A stretch of DNA of 64,000 nt from Escherichia coli (lineage in GTDB: Bacteria > Pseudomonadota > Gammaproteobacteria > Enterobacterales > Enterobacteriaceae). Shown here one piece after another: positions 1,415-30,895 of the stretch (positions within the stretch are counted from its first letter, which is position 1; the number at the start of each line of letters is the position of its first letter). The stretch lies in assembly GCF_044324875.1 (NCBI RefSeq), contig NZ_CP172185.1. One strand, given 5' to 3'. The translations under genes and the position numbers were made by a program. A model generated the notes under the pieces. The model had not been told where the DNA came from. It ran no database searches and was given only the letters and a program-made list of their open reading frames with translations.

Positions 1415-3322
1415 TTATCGTGGAAAACGAAAAGGGGAATACCCCACATCGTGCGTGATTTTCATCAGGGGATCGGCTTTGCCCGGTACATCAATTATCT
1501 TCATACCTGGCGGAGCATTCTCGAACGTGACTTTCAGTTCGCTGTGCTGTGTCATGGAAGAAGATGGATTCAACAGCGGAACATTGGGTTTGTACTGGCT
1601 CAGGCTGGCCTGATACTGCTCGTACTCTTTACGATCAAAAAAAGGCGTCCAGTCTGAAGCCAGAAACAGCCCTTTATTATCCAGCCAGTTAACCGTATCT
1701 TCAGGAACAACACTTTCCAGAGTATCTTTAACCGGCTCATACATCAGGGTTCCCAGAAAACCATATCCCCCGGCCTTCCCGATAAAGCCGCGGCCTTTCC
1801 CCATCAATCCCGTTTCTGCCGATACCTTCCCCAGCGTACGCATCTCTCTGGTCACTGCGGTAATGGATTTGGTAACGTCAGCAACCCATTTGGTTGCCAT
1901 AAACAGGGCAATCGCTTTCAGAACAGTTTCCCATCCCCCCATCGCCTGCGCCGTTTCATCCACCACGTGCCAGACTTTTTTTATGACAGGGCCTACGGTT
2001 TCCCAGTTATCAATAATGAGGTAAGCGCCACCAACCAGAAGAGCAATCAGCCCCTTAGCTGGCGTCATATTCATCACACCGCCGAGAACTTTCATAATTC
2101 TGGACAAAGAGCCTGCAGCGGCTCCCACCGTCAGTAAGGCCAGACCGATTTTAGCAATGGTCTTAACGAGCTCCGGGTTTTCACGGACAAACGTTCTCAC
2201 TTCCTCAAGGAGCGGTTTTACCGCTTCAAGACCATCATTAACCTCAGGAAGAAACGTTTCCCCCAGCGTGGAAGAAATGGCATCAAGTTGATTTTGCAGA
2301 AGTAAAAGCTGGTTTTCCGTCGTCGCTGCCCTCGAAGCATATTCCTTCTGCATCGAACTGCCATACTGCTGGGAATCCGCAACCCGCCTGAAGTTGGTAC
2401 GCAACAAATCAAGGTTAGTCAGCAGAGGTGCTATCGCGCCCAGAGACTCTTTCCCGAACAGGGCATTCAGCACAGCGGCCCGTTTTTCTTTAGGCACTTT
2501 AGCCATCGCATCCAGTACAGACAGCATGGTGCCCCGGGCATCTTTCTGCATATCAGCAGCTAATTTCTTCGGATTGATCCGCAGAAAACGCAATGCCTGT
2601 TTCTGCGATTTTGTCGCAGAATTTCCCGCGGTCAGGGAAAGCATGAAGTTCTTGATCCCTGTGGCGGCAATTTCTGACTCCACGCCCATCCCGGCAATGG
2701 TTGCCCCCATTGCCGCAATTTCGCCGGAAGCCACACCTGCAACACCACCTAAAGGACCAATACGCGTAACAATATCGGAGATTTTCTTCGCATTCGCCGG
2801 GCCGGTATTACCAAGGTAGTTGATTTTGTCAGCCAGCCCGGCCACTTCATCCTGCGTCATATTAAACGCAGTACGCCACTGGGCCATCATCTGCCCGGAC
2901 TCTTCAGCCGTTGTATCAAAGGCCACGCCCATCTTCACCGCATCAGTGGCAAACTGCATCAGTTCATCACGTGCAATCCCGGCCTGACCGCCAGCCGCCA
3001 CAATTTCCGCGATCCCGTCTGCAGACATGGGAAGCTCTGTAGACAAAGCGCGTACCTGCTCCGTCATGGCCTTAAATGCATCCGGCGTATCCAGACCGTC
3101 CACCACTTTGCGGACATCAGCCATCTTCGATTCAAGGGTGATGGCTGATTTTACAGGGAGTGCCAGTGCCCCCATTATTGCAGTACCCGCCCCGGCAGCA
3201 CCCAGAGCAAGGCTGGAGACTTCTTTCTGAAATCCCTTAAGCTGACGCTGCATACCTTTAAGCGGGCCGGATAGCCTGTCAACGGCGGTGATGATGGCTT
3301 TCAGCTGAAAATTATCAGCCAT
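1415..3322 (-). CDS. Tail tape measure protein
   Basis: 635-aa ORF, Ala/Gly-rich with hydrophobic central segments, positioned between tail chaperone and Mu N-like gene. Confidence 0.7.
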   Translation of the reverse strand: MADNFQLKAIITAVDRLSGPLKGMQRQLKGFQKEVSSLALGAAGAGTAIMGALALPVKSAITLESKMADVRKVVDGLDTPDAFKAMTEQVRALSTELPMSADGIAEIVAAGGQAGIARDELMQFATDAVKMGVAFDTTAEESGQMMAQWRTAFNMTQDEVAGLADKINYLGNTGPANAKKISDIVTRIGPLGGVAGVASGEIAAMGATIAGMGVESEIAATGIKNFMLSLTAGNSATKSQKQALRFLRINPKKLAADMQKDARGTMLSVLDAMAKVPKEKRAAVLNALFGKESLGAIAPLLTNLDLLRTNFRRVADSQQYGSSMQKEYASRAATTENQLLLLQNQLDAISSTLGETFLPEVNDGLEAVKPLLEEVRTFVRENPELVKTIAKIGLALLTVGAAAGSLSRIMKVLGGVMNMTPAKGLIALLVGGAYLIIDNWETVGPVIKKVWHVVDETAQAMGGWETVLKAIALFMATKWVADVTKSITAVTREMRTLGKVSAETGLMGKGRGFIGKAGGYGFLGTLMYEPVKDTLESVVPEDTVNWLDNKGLFLASDWTPFFDRKEYEQYQASLSQYKPNVPLLNPSSSMTQHSELKVTFENAPPGMKIIDVPGKADPLMKITHDVGYSPFRFPR

Positions 3323-24310: not shown

Positions 24311-24397
24311 ATATGTACCTCCGGTATACATATTACATGATTGAAATGAACCTTCAAGATACTTGTACCTTAACGGTACAAGGGTTTTAATTTCGTT
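24311..24397. promoter_or_regulatory. Immunity switch: divergent promoters with palindromic operators
   Basis: Palindromes ATGTACC-tcc-GGTATACAT (24314-24332) and CTTGTACC-ttaac-GGTACAAG (24362-24382); no Shine-Dalgarno before the cI ATG. Confidence 0.6.
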
Positions 24398-25072
24398 ATG
24401 AAAACAATCCATGACATCCGGCGGTCTAACGCCAGAAAACTGAGAGATGGTGTTGGCGGGAATTCTTCCTTTGCCACTATGATTGATCGCGAGCCAACCC
24501 AGACCAGCAGGTTTATGGGAGATGGTGCTACTAAAAATATCGGTGACAGCATGGCACGACACATCGAAAAATGTTTCGACCTGCCTGTCGGATGGCTCGA
24601 TCAAGAACACCAGACAACGAACATCACAAAAAAACCTGATGTTTCAATCACTAATAAACAAATCACATTAGTCCCTGTCATATCATGGGTACAGGCCGGA
24701 GCATGGAAAGAAGTTGGATATTCTGAGGTTGATTTGAGCACAGCAGAAACGTATCCCTGCCCTGTACCCTGTGGGGAAATGACTTATATCTTGCGGGTGA
24801 TAGGTGATTCAATGATTGATGAGTACCGCCCGGGAGACATGATTTTTGTCGATCCTGAAGTACCTGCCTGCCACGGTGACGACGTTATTGCATTGATGCA
24901 CGATACAGGTGAAACCACCTTCAAAAGGTTGATAGAAGATGGGACACAGCGTTATCTCAAAGCGTTAAACCCAAACTGGCCTGAGCCTTACATTAAGATC
25001 AACGGTAATTGCTCTATAATTGGAACTGTGATTTTCTCAGGAAAACCAAGAAGATACAAAATCAAAGCCTAA
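24398..25072 (+). CDS. CI-like repressor with HTH and LexA-like S24 peptidase domain
   Basis: 224-aa ORF; N-terminal HTH and C-terminal GDSM...K autocleavage domain. Confidence 0.85.
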   Translation: MKTIHDIRRSNARKLRDGVGGNSSFATMIDREPTQTSRFMGDGATKNIGDSMARHIEKCFDLPVGWLDQEHQTTNITKKPDVSITNKQITLVPVISWVQAGAWKEVGYSEVDLSTAETYPCPVPCGEMTYILRVIGDSMIDEYRPGDMIFVDPEVPACHGDDVIALMHDTGETTFKRLIEDGTQRYLKALNPNWPEPYIKINGNCSIIGTVIFSGKPRRYKIKA

Positions 25073-25084
25073 TCAATGTTTATG

Positions 25085-25108
25085 AACCTGCTTCGGCAGG
25101 TTTTTTTA
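25085..25108 (+). terminator. Intrinsic terminator after the repressor gene
   Basis: CCTGC-ttcg-GCAGG hairpin followed by seven T. Confidence 0.6.
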
Positions 25109-25111
25109 TAC

Positions 25112-25140
25112 TTGACAATGTACCTTTGGGATACATAATG
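25112..25140 (+). promoter_or_regulatory. pL-like promoter with overlapping operator
   Basis: TTGACA, 16-17 bp spacer containing TGTACC...GGATACA operator-like half-sites, then CATAAT. Confidence 0.55.
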
Positions 25141-25226
25141 TGCCCAAGAGAAACAACAAACAGGCAGGACGCCCACGAAGTAGCCGCCTGGAGCATATGA
25201 AGTCTAGGATGATTCGTTAGCAACAA

Positions 25227-25261
25227 AAAAGCGCCCTACAGGACGCTTAGCTCTTTAACAA
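25227..25261 (+). promoter_or_regulatory. Hairpin plus rrn-type boxA-like element in pL leader
   Basis: GC-rich hairpin 25231-25246 then GCTCTTTAACAA at 25250-25261, matching the rrn boxA core. Confidence 0.4.
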
Positions 25262-25306
25262 TCAGGTCCCCATCAACAAGTAACTGATAACTTGAGGAGG
25301 TGTGAA

Positions 25307-25513
25307 ATGCACAAAACAGAACCAAAAATCGTCGCGCCCGGATACACAAATGAGGAAATTTACGAGTGGATGGCAAAGAAGCTGGCAGCTATAAACCAGC
25401 TTCGTGAAGTGCTGTCTTATCGACAGGAAACAATAGACTCCTTAAAAAAACTGGATCAGGAAATCACGGTTTTATCACAGGATGTTACTTTAGATATTGT
25501 GCAGACAAATTAG
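25307..25513 (+). CDS. Hypothetical 68-aa protein, first gene after pL
   Basis: Strong GAGGAGG ribosome-binding site 6 nt before ATG; no arginine-rich motif. Confidence 0.5.
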   Translation: MHKTEPKIVAPGYTNEEIYEWMAKKLAAINQLREVLSYRQETIDSLKKLDQEITVLSQDVTLDIVQTN

Positions 25514-25919
25514 GATCCCATTCATTTTCGTCAAAATCATCAAAGTGATGAATTTGTGATCTCCAGTCTCGATAATCTAAAAATTTCTGGGCGGTTACGC
25601 TTATTTTATCAAGCGTGAGTTCATCCTGAATTGAAAGAAGAAGTTCATCAAATTTCATCTCATTAATCTGTTTTGGCATCCAGTGATGCTTCATCAGAAT
25701 AAGGTGAACCAGAGCTTTTTTCCCATTCAACTGATTATAGGGAGTGCCGAATTTCTTCCGGTGCTCATGTAAGACAAGGTCCAGAAGAGTAAGTAATGTT
25801 GCCCTTGATTCAACTTTGCTTATTTCGACTGATGACACTACCCCACTGATTTCAATGCCCCGATACTTTCCAACATTTTCACAGTGGGATTTGTACAGCG
25901 TATAGATATTACCGGACAT
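25485..25919 (-). CDS. Hypothetical 144-aa protein antisense to the pL operon
   Basis: AT-rich ORF with AAGGA ribosome-binding site; 3' end overlaps 25307-25513 convergently by 29 nt. Confidence 0.5.
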   Translation of the reverse strand: MSGNIYTLYKSHCENVGKYRGIEISGVVSSVEISKVESRATLLTLLDLVLHEHRKKFGTPYNQLNGKKALVHLILMKHHWMPKQINEMKFDELLLSIQDELTLDKISVTAQKFLDYRDWRSQIHHFDDFDENEWDPNLSAQYLK

Positions 25920-26070
25920 TTCTTTTCCTTTTGCGTTGTTGGGGATAACCAGATTAACCGAATCCTTGTTGTTGGGGAATAACCAGGTCCACCTCGCCTG
26001 ATGTGGCTAAAAGCAGGCACATAACAGCTAAGTATTTTCAACCAGAGAGAATCCTTAGCGTTGTGGTGAA

Positions 26071-26387
26071 TGCGGCTCAGCGCACGCGGGTTAAGGTTGA
26101 GGCTGACAGTCGACCTTCTGTGGATACCCACCCGCCTGGTGTGCAACCTTCGCCAGGCACCGGGAGGCACCCGGCACCACAACTTTATGCTGCGTGTAGT
26201 CTTGGCGGTACCAGCTTTTACCCTTGCTTCCGGCTGGTACCGTCCTTTTTACAAAACAGAGAAGAGCATTACCGGACGACGGGCTCATAACTCAATCCAT
26301 CCGGGCGGCTGCCACCGCAGGTGTTCTTCTCTGTTTTGTGGAGAAACTAATCGGCTTTGCAGGGTCGATATGATGAGGAGCAGCAAA
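26071..26387. other. GC-rich structured noncoding segment (candidate cis-acting RNA or ncRNA)
   Basis: Nested inverted repeats including a 12-bp stem GGCGGTACCAGC/GCTGGTACCGTC (26211-26251); short ORFs in several frames without ribosome-binding sites. Confidence 0.3.
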
Positions 26388-26750
26388 ATGGCTAGCGAAC
26401 GCAGTACTGATGTGCAAGCATTTATCGGGGAGCTGGACGGCGGCGTATTTGAAACCAAAATCGGCGCAGTTCTCAGTGAAGTCGCTTCCGGTGTGATGAA
26501 CACGAAAACCAAAGGTAAGGTCTCACTCAACCTGGAAATCGAACCATTTGATGAAAACCGTGTGAAAATCAAACACAAACTCTCATATGTTCGCCCGACT
26601 AACCGCGGGAAAATTTCCGAAGAAGACACCACCGAAACGCCGATGTATGTCAATCGCGGTGGTCGCCTGACTATTCTGCAGGAAGACCAGGGACAATTAC
26701 TGACTCTTGCCGGTGAACCTGACGGAAAACTCCGCGCAGCAGGTCATTAA
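26388..26750 (+). CDS. Hypothetical early-left protein (CPS-53 YfdP-like)
   Basis: 120-aa product from Met 26388 preceded by GAGGAG; the upstream in-frame extension from 26070 looks noncoding. Confidence 0.5.
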   Translation: MASERSTDVQAFIGELDGGVFETKIGAVLSEVASGVMNTKTKGKVSLNLEIEPFDENRVKIKHKLSYVRPTNRGKISEEDTTETPMYVNRGGRLTILQEDQGQLLTLAGEPDGKLRAAGH

Positions 26751-29514: not shown

Positions 29515-29628
29515 TAGAGCCATACAGCCTCACACTCGATGAGGCCTGTTCATTGCTCAATGATATCCAGACCTACCATCGCCGCATCAATGCGGCTTTT
29601 TCTTGCGTGTAATTGCGGAGACTTTGCG

Positions 29629-29847
29629 ATGTACTTGACACTTCAGGAGTGGAACGCTCGCCAGCGACGCCCAAGAAGCCTTGAAACAGTTCGTCGATGG
29701 GTGCGCGAATGCAGGATATTCCCTCCTCCGGTTAAGGATGGAAGAGAGTATCTGTTCCACGAATCAGCGGTAAAGGTTGACTTAAATCGACCAGTAACAG
29801 GTAGCCTTTTGAAGAGGATCAGAAATGGGAAGAAGGCGAAGTCATGA
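29629..29847 (+). CDS. xis: Excisionase Xis (lambda)
   Basis: 72-aa product MYLTLQEWNARQRRPRSLETVRRW... matches lambda Xis as recalled. Confidence 0.9.
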   Translation: MYLTLQEWNARQRRPRSLETVRRWVRECRIFPPPVKDGREYLFHESAVKVDLNRPVTGSLLKRIRNGKKAKS

Positions 29848-30895
29848 GCGCCGGGATTTACCCCCTAACCTTTATATAAGAAACAATGGATATTACTGCT
29901 ACAGGGACCCAAGGACGGGTAAAGAGTTCGGATTAGGCAGAGACAGGAGGATAGCAATTACTGAAGCAATACAGGCAAACATTGAGTTATTTTCAGGACA
30001 CAAACACAAGCCTCTGACAGCGAGAATCAACAGTGATAATTCTGTTACGTTACATTCATGGCTTGATCGCTACGAAAAAATCCTCGCCAGCAGAGGAATC
30101 AAGCAGAAGACACTTATAAATTACATGAGCAAAATTAAAGCAATAAGGAGGGGGCTACCTGATGTTCCACTTGAAGACATCACCACAAAAGAAATTGCAG
30201 CAATGCTCAATGGATACATAGACGAGGGCAAGGCGGCGTCAGCCAAGTTAATCAGATCAACACTGAGCGATGCATTCCGAGAGGCAATAGCTGAAGGCCA
30301 TATAACAACAAACCCGGTCGCTGCCACTCGCGCAGCAAAATCAGAGGTAAGGAGATCAAGACTTACGGCTGACGAATACCTGAAAATTTATCAAGCAGCA
30401 GAATCATCACCATGTTGGCTTAGACTTGCAATGGAACTGGCTGTTGTTACCGGGCAGCGAGTTGGTGATTTATGCGAAATGAAGTGGTCTGATATCGTAG
30501 ATGGATATCTTTATGTCGAGCAAAGCAAAACAGGCGTAAAAATTGCCATCCCAACAGCATTGCATGTTGATGCTCTCGGAATATCAATGAAGGAAACACT
30601 TGATAAATGCAAAGAGATTCTTGGCGGAGAAACCATAATTGCATCTACTCGTCGCGAACCGCTTTCATCCGGCACAGTATCAAGGTATTTTATGCGCGCA
30701 CGAAAAGCATCAGGTCTTTCCTTCGAAGGGGATCCGCCTACCTTTCACGAGTTGCGCAGTTTGTCTGCAAGACTCTATGAGAAGCAGATAAGCGATAAGT
30801 TTGCTCAACATCTTCTCGGGCATAAGTCGGACACCATGGCATCACAGTATCGTGATGACAGAGGCAGGGAGTGGGACAAAATTGAAATCAAATAA
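29825..30895 (+). CDS. int: Integrase Int (lambda, tyrosine recombinase)
   Basis: 356-aa product MGRRRSHERRDLPPNLYIRNNGYYCYRDPRTGKEF... matches lambda Int as recalled. Confidence 0.95.
   Translation: MGRRRSHERRDLPPNLYIRNNGYYCYRDPRTGKEFGLGRDRRIAITEAIQANIELFSGHKHKPLTARINSDNSVTLHSWLDRYEKILASRGIKQKTLINYMSKIKAIRRGLPDVPLEDITTKEIAAMLNGYIDEGKAASAKLIRSTLSDAFREAIAEGHITTNPVAATRAAKSEVRRSRLTADEYLKIYQAAESSPCWLRLAMELAVVTGQRVGDLCEMKWSDIVDGYLYVEQSKTGVKIAIPTALHVDALGISMKETLDKCKEILGGETIIASTRREPLSSGTVSRYFMRARKASGLSFEGDPPTFHELRSLSARLYEKQISDKFAQHLLGHKSDTMASQYRDDRGREWDKIEIK

Follow-up and report, generated by a model that had tools for sequence, protein, structure and literature searches.

Several described prophage systems resemble the locus studied here. 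In the Qin prophage, ydfC is the third gene of the dicBF operon and lies directly upstream of an untranslated stretch that contains dicF and a Rho-independent terminator; the function of its product is unknown (PMC5069750). In the Salmonella prophage ST64B, the gene STMMW_20121 is transcribed from its own promoter under almost all conditions, antisense to the lytic genes, and the authors left open whether its role is 'accessory or regulatory' (Owen et al. 2020, PMC7067206). In phage P22, according to published summaries, the sieB/esc/sas locus provides a lysogen-expressed exclusion gene in the pL region, from which the phage escapes by means of an early product and an antisense RNA (PMC12197685, PMC7067206). 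Here, we describe a pair of convergent, overlapping genes encoding proteins of 68 and 144 amino acids (p68 and p144) at the head of the pL operon of an SfIV/SfV-like lambdoid prophage of Escherichia coli (RefSeq assembly GCF_044324875.1, contig NZ_CP172185.1). The stretch analysed, termed the window, comprises 64,000 nucleotides (nt), and all positions and strands refer to it. Going beyond an earlier note on this DNA, which had described the two open reading frames (ORFs), our analysis shows that p68 is a homologue of YdfC, that p144 belongs to the ECs1072 family, and that the two genes form a conserved, mobile module.

The locus compares with these systems as follows. Like ydfC in the operon ydfA-ydfB-ydfC-dicF-dicB, the p68 gene lies in a repressor-controlled leftward operon, upstream of an untranslated DicF-like RNA and a Rho-independent terminator, and the two proteins (68 and 72 residues) share 38-39% identity over practically their full length (residues 1-66 of p68 in tblastn alignments with annotated ydfC genes; blastp E value 1e-15). 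In contrast to the window, Qin-type phages carry no ECs1072-family gene facing ydfC, and the RNA in the window scores as STnc100-like, not as DicF. STMMW_20121 encodes a member of the same family as p144 (profile E value 3e-45, 29% identity) with the same length of 144 residues, and it likewise overlaps convergently, by 71 nt, with a YdfC-like gene (Sb50/STMMW_20131). However, it is located between the late promoter/terminator and the holin gene and not at pL, and it was treated as a single candidate accessory gene, with neither its partner nor its family being noted (PMC7067206). The SieB/Esc/sas system of P22 is the closest working analogy to the logic that we propose for p144 and p68, and a SieB gene beside a p144 homologue (locus L106, see below) fits this neighbourhood. 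But SieB is a membrane protein of family PF14163 without sequence or fold similarity to p144, which has no Pfam match, and Esc is made in frame from the sieB gene and is not encoded by a separate convergent gene. In lambda, sieB lies antisense to pL transcription. With lambda N and HK022 Nun, p68 has only the map position in common, that is, the first gene after pL; it is not homologous to them and lacks their arginine-rich motif. The lambda rexAB genes are, like p68 and p144, two immunity-adjacent genes, and they form a lysogen-expressed exclusion system, but they lie upstream of pL, are co-directional and cotranscribed with cI, and show no homology to the pair (no match in PADLOC).

Two genes of two phage protein families

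The ORF pair of the earlier note was recovered with the same coordinates. The p68 gene (25307-25513, + strand) is the first ORF 3' of pL. Its reading frame opens at 25292, and translation from the ATG at 25307 yields 68 residues; the strong ribosome-binding site (RBS) GAGGAGG (25295-25301) is located 6 nt upstream of this ATG. The p144 gene (25485-25919, - strand) encodes 144 residues, is preceded by a good RBS (AAGGA, about 9 nt upstream of the ATG) and is AT-rich, with a G+C content of 36-42% compared to 44-56% in its flanks. The 3' ends of both coding regions overlap by 29 nt from stop to stop (25485-25513). Since each protein matches a protein family end to end and has homologues at 20-55% identity, both ORFs are genuine genes and more than chance ORFs.

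p144 matches the NCBIfam model NF033230 ('ECs1072 family phage-associated protein') with 157.8 bits against a cut-off of 70, with residues 4-144 aligned to profile positions 2-142 of 142, and it matches phrog_5286 over its whole length (E value 1.5e-90, 1-144 of 144). A full-library search assigned about 65 representative clusters to the ECs1072 family, most of them with proteins of 144-155 residues and 22-38% identity to p144. In an alignment of 51 family sequences, every member has H72 and W134, and at least 90% have R54, L64, G66, A69, and W80; p144 has all of these residues. Based on this alignment, AlphaFold2 predicted an all-helical protein of seven helices (predicted local distance difference test score, pLDDT, 93.9; predicted template modelling score, pTM, 0.88). 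A Foldseek search of AFDB50 with this model returned no functionally annotated match: the hits were almost without exception uncharacterised and mostly members of the same family, and there was one weak match to DUF29 (E value 6e-3). Neither the search of BFVD with the model nor the sequence searches of the PDB gave a match, and no Pfam family was matched by p144 or p68. Furthermore, when p68, p144, and seven divergent homologues were compared with PADLOC-DB v2, which covers systems through 2023, 0 families were matched at E values of 1 or below.

The smaller protein, p68, matches phrog_1744 over residues 1-68 of 68 (E value 4.8e-34) and carries the YdfC N-terminal motif EP-I-APxYTxEE(I/L)YxWM; no NCBIfam model was matched. 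In a fused p144-linker-p68 prediction with AlphaFold2, calculated from a partly paired alignment, p68 consists of an ordered N-terminal segment and one long helix (pLDDT 85-94). As stated in the earlier note, p68 has no arginine-rich motif: it contains two arginines in 68 residues (R33 and R39), neither of them N-terminal, and has a net charge of about -3. Neither protein showed an N/Nun match in PHROGs, Pfam or NCBIfam, and on this result, together with the missing arginine-rich motif, we rejected an N/Nun identity of p68 and p144. According to the SfIV genome paper, SfIV, SfV, and SfII are without N, cII, and cIII (PMC3851460). Therefore, nothing 'replaces' N at the position of p68, and the statement that N would normally be found there reflects a lambda-centred expectation.

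The p68 gene was intact in all 43 IMG/VR copies found via the exact RBS string; a further 36 copies with G25300A in the RBS were left out of this count. A run of seven A residues (25441-25447) spans codons 46-48, and many database copies of p68 are frameshifted or shortened near residue 48, for example that of E. albertii (L008, 80 residues) and those of clusters P0048-P0055. These frameshifts could result from sequencing error, decay or slippage.

The convergent pairing across divergent phages

A YdfC-like ORF that converges with an ECs1072-family gene and overlaps its 3' end was present in 11 of the 14 divergent lineages, that of the window included, down to about 22-30% identity. The corresponding loci are the window, L008, L009, L015, L016/17, L018-20, L103, L104/5, L106-8, L110, prophage Sp4 of E. 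coli O157 Sakai, and ST64B. Identities to p144 amount to 52% (L009), 38% (L015), 34% (L018-20), 30% (L016/L017), 29% (L110), and 22% (L106-108). For this comparison, a small YdfC profile was run over all six-frame ORFs of divergent loci, roughly 100 or more per locus. In each locus searched in this way, its top-scoring ORF was the one overlapping the 3' end of the ECs1072-family gene, even where this ORF had not been called (as in L016 and L106). The N-terminal motif of these partners reads (E/Q)P-(I/Y)-(I/Y/F)-A/x-x-(Y/L)-(T/S/N)-x-EE-L-(Y/L)-x-W-(M/L). At all pair loci the YdfC-like gene is co-oriented with the phage operon and the ECs1072-family gene is antisense to it. The pairs were found at four map positions, namely at the head of the pL operon, in the pR operon between cII and O, between Q/pR' and the holin gene, and between terminase and mom. 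In Sakai Sp4, the gene after which the family is named, ECs_5703 (formerly ECs1072), is found in antisense orientation, with cII on one side and the replication gene on the other; facing it is an unannotated convergent ORF starting MSNDKK...PHIWRGGLSDVELAEWL (YdfC profile E value 6.5e-7). In L106, a SieB gene is located beside the p144 homologue in the same orientation. Judged from these comparisons, the pairing of ECs1072-like and YdfC-like genes is conserved, which is the main result of this study.

Could this arrangement simply bring together functionally unrelated neighbours, with a 'moron' (an accessory gene insertion) placed next to ydfC by chance and the overlap reflecting genome compaction? 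Both families also occur separately, and the length of the overlap varies between 14 and 194 nt, with a value of about 317 nt in Sakai if the long ORF there is real. But a chance origin has to account for the same convergent pairing in 11 of 14 lineages, at about 22-30% identity and at four genomic positions, and for a best YdfC-profile ORF that at every locus searched with the profile is the one overlapping the ECs1072 3' end. We therefore regard this explanation as quite improbable. We found no paper that links the YdfC and ECs1072 families, notes the convergent overlap or assigns a function; both families are catalogued as hypothetical, and STMMW_20121 had been flagged earlier as a candidate accessory gene. 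In PhiR42_1, ORFs are annotated on the minus strand 3' of ydfC; they look spurious, do not match the ECs1072 profile, and were discarded.

A variable cassette in the pL operon

Comparison with related phages delimits a cargo cassette of about 770 bp (25219-25988, genes on both strands): homology to SfV, SfII, and mEp460_4F5 ends at 25218 and resumes at 25989, and homology to PhiR29 breaks at 25266 and 25935. The window itself is about 98% identical to Shigella phage SfIV across the p68/p144 region. SfV, SfII, mEp460_4F5, and ST64B share with the window both the leader (25151-25218) and, from 25989 on, the RNA region. Between these flanks, SfV carries a sense gene for 99 residues and mEp460_4F5 one for 122 residues, SfII an antisense gene for 63 residues, and PhiR29 a larger antisense gene, whereas ST64B has no cargo there. 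The pair thus shows the variable presence between conserved flanks of related phages by which morons, or accessory genes, are recognised. In 80 IMG/VR contigs, the segment between 25150 and about 26350 is complete and lies downstream of at least two kinds of immunity region, and in 50 of these 80 loci homology breaks exactly at about 25150. A third arrangement occurs in an E. coli chromosome (L012, Res13), where an additional gene for a BRCT-domain protein is present. The cassette was detected in 409 of 5426 complete E. coli genomes (about 7.5%), and every copy returned by the related-locus scan was 100% identical. Taken together, these alignments identify p68/p144 as an apparently mobile accessory cassette at a variable hotspot in the pL operon.

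The earlier note had considered this position a site of exclusion genes. The hotspot for accessory, exclusion-type cargo and the SieB gene of L106 support that part of the proposal; the parallel drawn to rexAB needs correction, as rexAB lies upstream and the cassette downstream of pL. The extra gene in L012 (4922-5812, 296 residues, antisense) is bordered on one side by the p68/p144 cassette and on the other by a repressor gene unlike that of the window, and represents another cargo of the hotspot.

Promoters, terminators, and expression of homologues

Upstream of p68, the sequence TTGACA-16-CATAAT (25112-25139, + strand) matches the promoter consensus at 11 of 12 positions, in agreement with the pL-like promoter of the earlier note. 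Its spacer holds TGTACCTTTGGGATACA (25119-25135), a copy of the operator that is present three times between cro and cI (24313-24380), and for this reason we assign it as the CI-controlled pL. The repressor gene cI (24398-25072, + strand) encodes a LexA/S24-type protein (phrog_4 transcriptional repressor, E value 2e-49) and is annotated as cI in SfIV and SfV. It is followed by an intrinsic terminator (25084-25103, + strand) with an 8-bp stem and a T run, which is annotated as a terminator in SfV.

No good consensus promoter was found upstream of p144. The best candidate, on the - strand at 25951-25979, consists of the -35 element TTCCCC (25979-25974) and the -10 element TAATCT (25956-25951) with a spacing of 17 nt; 31 nt separate the -10 element from the ATG. 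Identical or related hexamers, at distances of 29-39 nt from the start codon, are found in L008, L009, L110 (TTTCCA/TAAACT), L007 (TTCCTC/TACTCT), L016 and L107 (both TGnTATCTT), and Sakai (TATAAT). TTCCCC-17-TAATCT is therefore probably the p144 promoter, of a weak sigma-70 type. A direct repeat, GGGGATAACCAG / GGGAATAACCAG (25941-25959 and 25975-25993, spaced 34 nt), overlaps the putative -35 element and start region; it is kept upstream of the different antisense cargo of PhiR29, where homology resumes at 25935, and could serve as the binding site of a regulator or be part of a promoter module common to both cargoes.

Two candidate terminators were found on the p144 strand. A 9-bp hairpin within the p68 ORF (25378-25403, -15.6 kcal/mol, z-score -3.5, weak U tract), about 85 nt past the p144 stop codon, is a possible weak first terminator. 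Upstream of the p68 start, AAGCGTCCTGTAGGGCGCTT followed by U6 (25229-25248, -11.5 kcal/mol) forms an intrinsic terminator that is conserved in L008 and L009. At the place equivalent to the first hairpin, within the partner ORF and 30-50 nt beyond the stop codon, L103, L104, and L110 have hairpins that make better terminator candidates. With its terminators within or upstream of p68, the p144 mRNA should be complementary to the p68 message over some or all of its length, and the pL transcript is antisense to the whole of p144.

Expression data are available for two homologues. STMMW_20121 (2090066-2090500, 435 nt) lies directly after the holin gene and overlaps STMMW_20131 (360 nt) by 71 nt (PMC7067206, Table S5). 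Its transcript reached 60-270 transcripts per million (TPM) in 16 of 17 lysogen conditions, compared to 0.3-33 TPM for the adjacent holin gene and 1.5-7 TPM for sb49 (PMC7067206). In our ST64B sequence (L112), the ECs1072-family ORF at 2345-2779 and Sb50 at 2709-3068 have exactly the lengths and the overlap of STMMW_20121 and STMMW_20131. The former ORF is unannotated in the ST64B phage record; its partner Sb50 matches the YdfC profile with an E value of 6e-18. Because of the STMMW_20121 data, we consider the antisense member of the pair to be the one expressed in lysogeny. In Sakai, ECs1072 is on a microarray list of genes of the transition to stationary phase (-2.1-fold) and thus is detectably transcribed.

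The TPM values of STMMW_20131 are high as well, and we initially considered them as lysogenic expression of the YdfC-like gene. This interpretation was dropped: the annotated 5' end of sb50/STMMW_20131 (L112 3068-2960, - strand) covers TTGAAA-N16/17-TATGAT with a GC hairpin and a run of T residues downstream of it, which by its sequence appears to be a pR'/tR'-like late promoter with a constitutive short transcript. The YdfC-like ORF of ST64B probably starts at an internal methionine (MQDGKQQPYFF...).

A model for p68 and p144

We propose that p68 and p144 form a conserved, mobile two-gene moron cassette whose members would be expressed reciprocally and coupled by convergent transcription; for this model as a whole we estimate a probability of about one half. 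According to the model, p68 would be translated from the CI-repressed pL transcript and hence be made only upon infection or induction. p144 would be transcribed from its own weak promoter (25951-25979), antisense to the operon, and would be made in the lysogen, where the operon is switched off. Once pL is active, polymerases starting there would traverse the p144 unit head-on and lower p144 by transcriptional interference and antisense pairing. The same transcription would deliver p68, which could act on p144 already present or on the p144 pathway; a functional interaction of the two proteins would most simply be direct binding. p144 itself would serve the lysogen, for instance through superinfection exclusion or abortive infection, and the phage would have to overcome this activity. 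The mutual regulation through the antisense overlap that the earlier note had suggested is plausible in light of the conserved convergent layout and the published lysogen RNA-seq data on the ST64B homologue, but these do not demonstrate it.

The function of p144 is the least certain part of this model. We favour a role that would benefit the lysogen, either exclusion- or abortive infection-like or regulatory. Only tentatively do we go further and suggest that p144 and p68 constitute a prophage system of two proteins that has not been recognised before and has a new fold. In such a system, lysogen-expressed p144 would inhibit phages that superinfect or share the cell, or else a host process, and p68, supplied by early or late transcription of the phage itself, would together with head-on silencing serve as the dedicated off-switch. 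That p144 is a true anti-phage system is likewise a possibility we rate as doubtful.

A number of observations weigh against the model. There is no similarity to a known defence protein (PADLOC-DB v2), a Pfam family or an annotated fold, so that what suggests a defence role is genomic context and analogy. The fused p144-p68 model reached a pTM of just 0.62 and came without a predicted aligned error, and we do not count it as evidence for binding. The proposed p144 promoter matches the consensus poorly, and lysogenic expression of p144 in the window phage, and with it the reciprocal expression of the pair, is what we infer from the ST64B homologue. Furthermore, the partner is not obligatory: L007 has none, L101 and L102 (short contigs) have a different neighbour, L109 shows a weak match only, and YdfC occurs alone in Qin-like phages. 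A Mantel (mirror-tree) test of 11 pairs gave r 0.46 (p = 0.004), but the signal came from two close pairs and was gone without them.

The expression data also bear on a toxin-antitoxin (TA)-like addiction or abortive-infection pair, in which both proteins would be present in the lysogen, one toxic and the other neutralising it, with the overlap setting their ratio. A small mobile two-gene module with tight linkage over large divergence would suit such a pair, both annotated ST64B genes have high TPM values in lysogens, and TA systems are located nearby in related prophages (ParE/RelB in L019, HicAB in L110). However, the value for STMMW_20131 is confounded by the short transcript from the pR'-like promoter/terminator, and the YdfC-like gene lies within a repressed phage operon at every locus. 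Either gene can stand alone, no TA family was matched in Pfam, NCBIfam or PADLOC, and for p68/p144 we found neither the co-directional bicistronic operon nor the recognisable toxin/antitoxin fold of type II TA systems. We therefore consider a TA-like pair unlikely.

It is likewise unlikely, in our view, that p144 is a prophage regulatory factor without an anti-phage role, acting on induction, the repressor or host transcription, with p68 as its lytic-phase antagonist. The layout and expression evidence fit such a regulator as well as they fit the favoured model, and Owen et al. themselves considered an 'accessory or regulatory' function. The decrease in expression in late stationary phase (Salmonella) and at the stationary transition (Sakai) suggests growth-linked control. 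But the confident p144 model contains no DNA-binding fold or helix-turn-helix, there is no Pfam match, and the cassette is dispensable, since close relatives exist without it.

If the reciprocal-expression model were true, the module would be widespread, with this allele in about 7.5% of complete E. coli genomes and its family spanning the Enterobacterales, and its architecture itself would encode a toggle between lysogeny and lysis. It would provide the first functional context for YdfC, a K-12 protein that has been without a function for decades, and a testable role for the ECs1072 family, including the highly lysogen-expressed STMMW_20121. More generally, the locus would illustrate how a phage operon can accommodate antisense cargo.

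Flanking elements of the pL operon

To the right of the cassette, an STnc100/DicF-like RNA ending in an intrinsic terminator is encoded at 26042-26253 (+ strand). The Rfam model RF02076 is matched over its full length with 42.8 bits (E value 4e-7), which is below the gathering score of 47, and STnc100-like is therefore the best term; the DicF score is 23 bits. The terminator stem (26204-26244) has 13 bp (-25.7 kcal/mol, z-score -5.7), is followed by a U run, and scores weakly as DicF. The RNA lies between the cassette and yfdP (26379-26750, + strand; phrog_204, annotated as YfdP in relatives), the next conserved gene of the pL operon, and is present in all relatives compared, ST64B included.

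Directly after the hairpin at 25229-25248, the + strand contains an element resembling the boxA of rrn operons, AGCTCTTTAACAA (25249-25261). The E. coli rrn boxA consensus is TGCTCTTTAACAA. The element agrees with it at 12 of 13 positions and is the sole match with at most one mismatch in the 64-kb window, where about 0.08 matches are expected by chance. It also occurs in SfIV, in PhiR29 with its different antisense cargo, and in L008, L009, and L012; L110 has a perfect copy and L007 a near-perfect one. Among the relatives compared, it is absent from SfV, SfII, mEp460_4F5, ST64B, L015, and L107. A boxB-type nut site was not established. The pL transcript is untranslated for about 860 nt (25514-26378), the stretch that is antisense to p144 plus the RNA region; the boxA-like element could recruit NusB/S10 and thereby shield this stretch from Rho. 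A protection of this kind has been described for CRISPR arrays, which are shielded from Rho by boxA (PMC7665894). For the SfV/SfIV group, the boxA-like element, the small RNA and the terminator hint at an N-independent control of pL.

Such a control raises the question whether p68 itself could be an early transcription factor, a non-arginine-rich analogue of N that allows reading through the terminator at about 26250. p68 is the sole protein encoded between pL and the strong terminator, YdfC-like genes are often found just past a promoter/terminator (pL here, pR'-tR' in ST64B), and the phage group has no N. But p68 is acidic, without an arginine-rich motif or similarity to the N, Nun or Q families, and in some members the boxA-like element offers a protein-independent route. 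Moreover, SfV, SfII, and ST64B share the leader, the RNA, and the terminator in the absence of a p68 gene, so that p68 is not required for terminator readthrough. Of all the explanations considered, we regard this one as the least credible, with hardly any chance of being correct.

The left flank of the hotspot is the conserved pL leader (25151-25218, + strand), which is present as a homology block in SfV, SfII, mEp460_4F5, ST64B, and L012. These 68 nt begin about 5-10 nt past the predicted pL start and are kept among these heteroimmune phages and in L107. As RNA of the + strand, the leader shows an unexceptional fold (z-score -1.4), and on its minus strand a hairpin (25176-25160) with TTGTTGTTTC directly after it resembles a terminator. 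In the right flank, we also compared putL and putR of HK022 with positions 26050-26135; the alignments gave scattered matches only, and a put-like RNA is unconvincing.

The SfIV record contains two ORFs that cross the STnc100-like RNA, orf35 (25838-26182, 345 nt, - strand) and orf34 (26070-26750, 681 nt, + strand), while the RefSeq annotation of the E. coli copies shows just a 363-nt yfdP and a 'frameshifted' pseudogene in this region; orf35 and orf34 are probably spurious. Further downstream, the window contains xis and int genes (29539-30895), which we take to be practically the same as the lambda genes. Combined with an early region of the SfIV type, they would exemplify the mosaicism of lambdoid phages.

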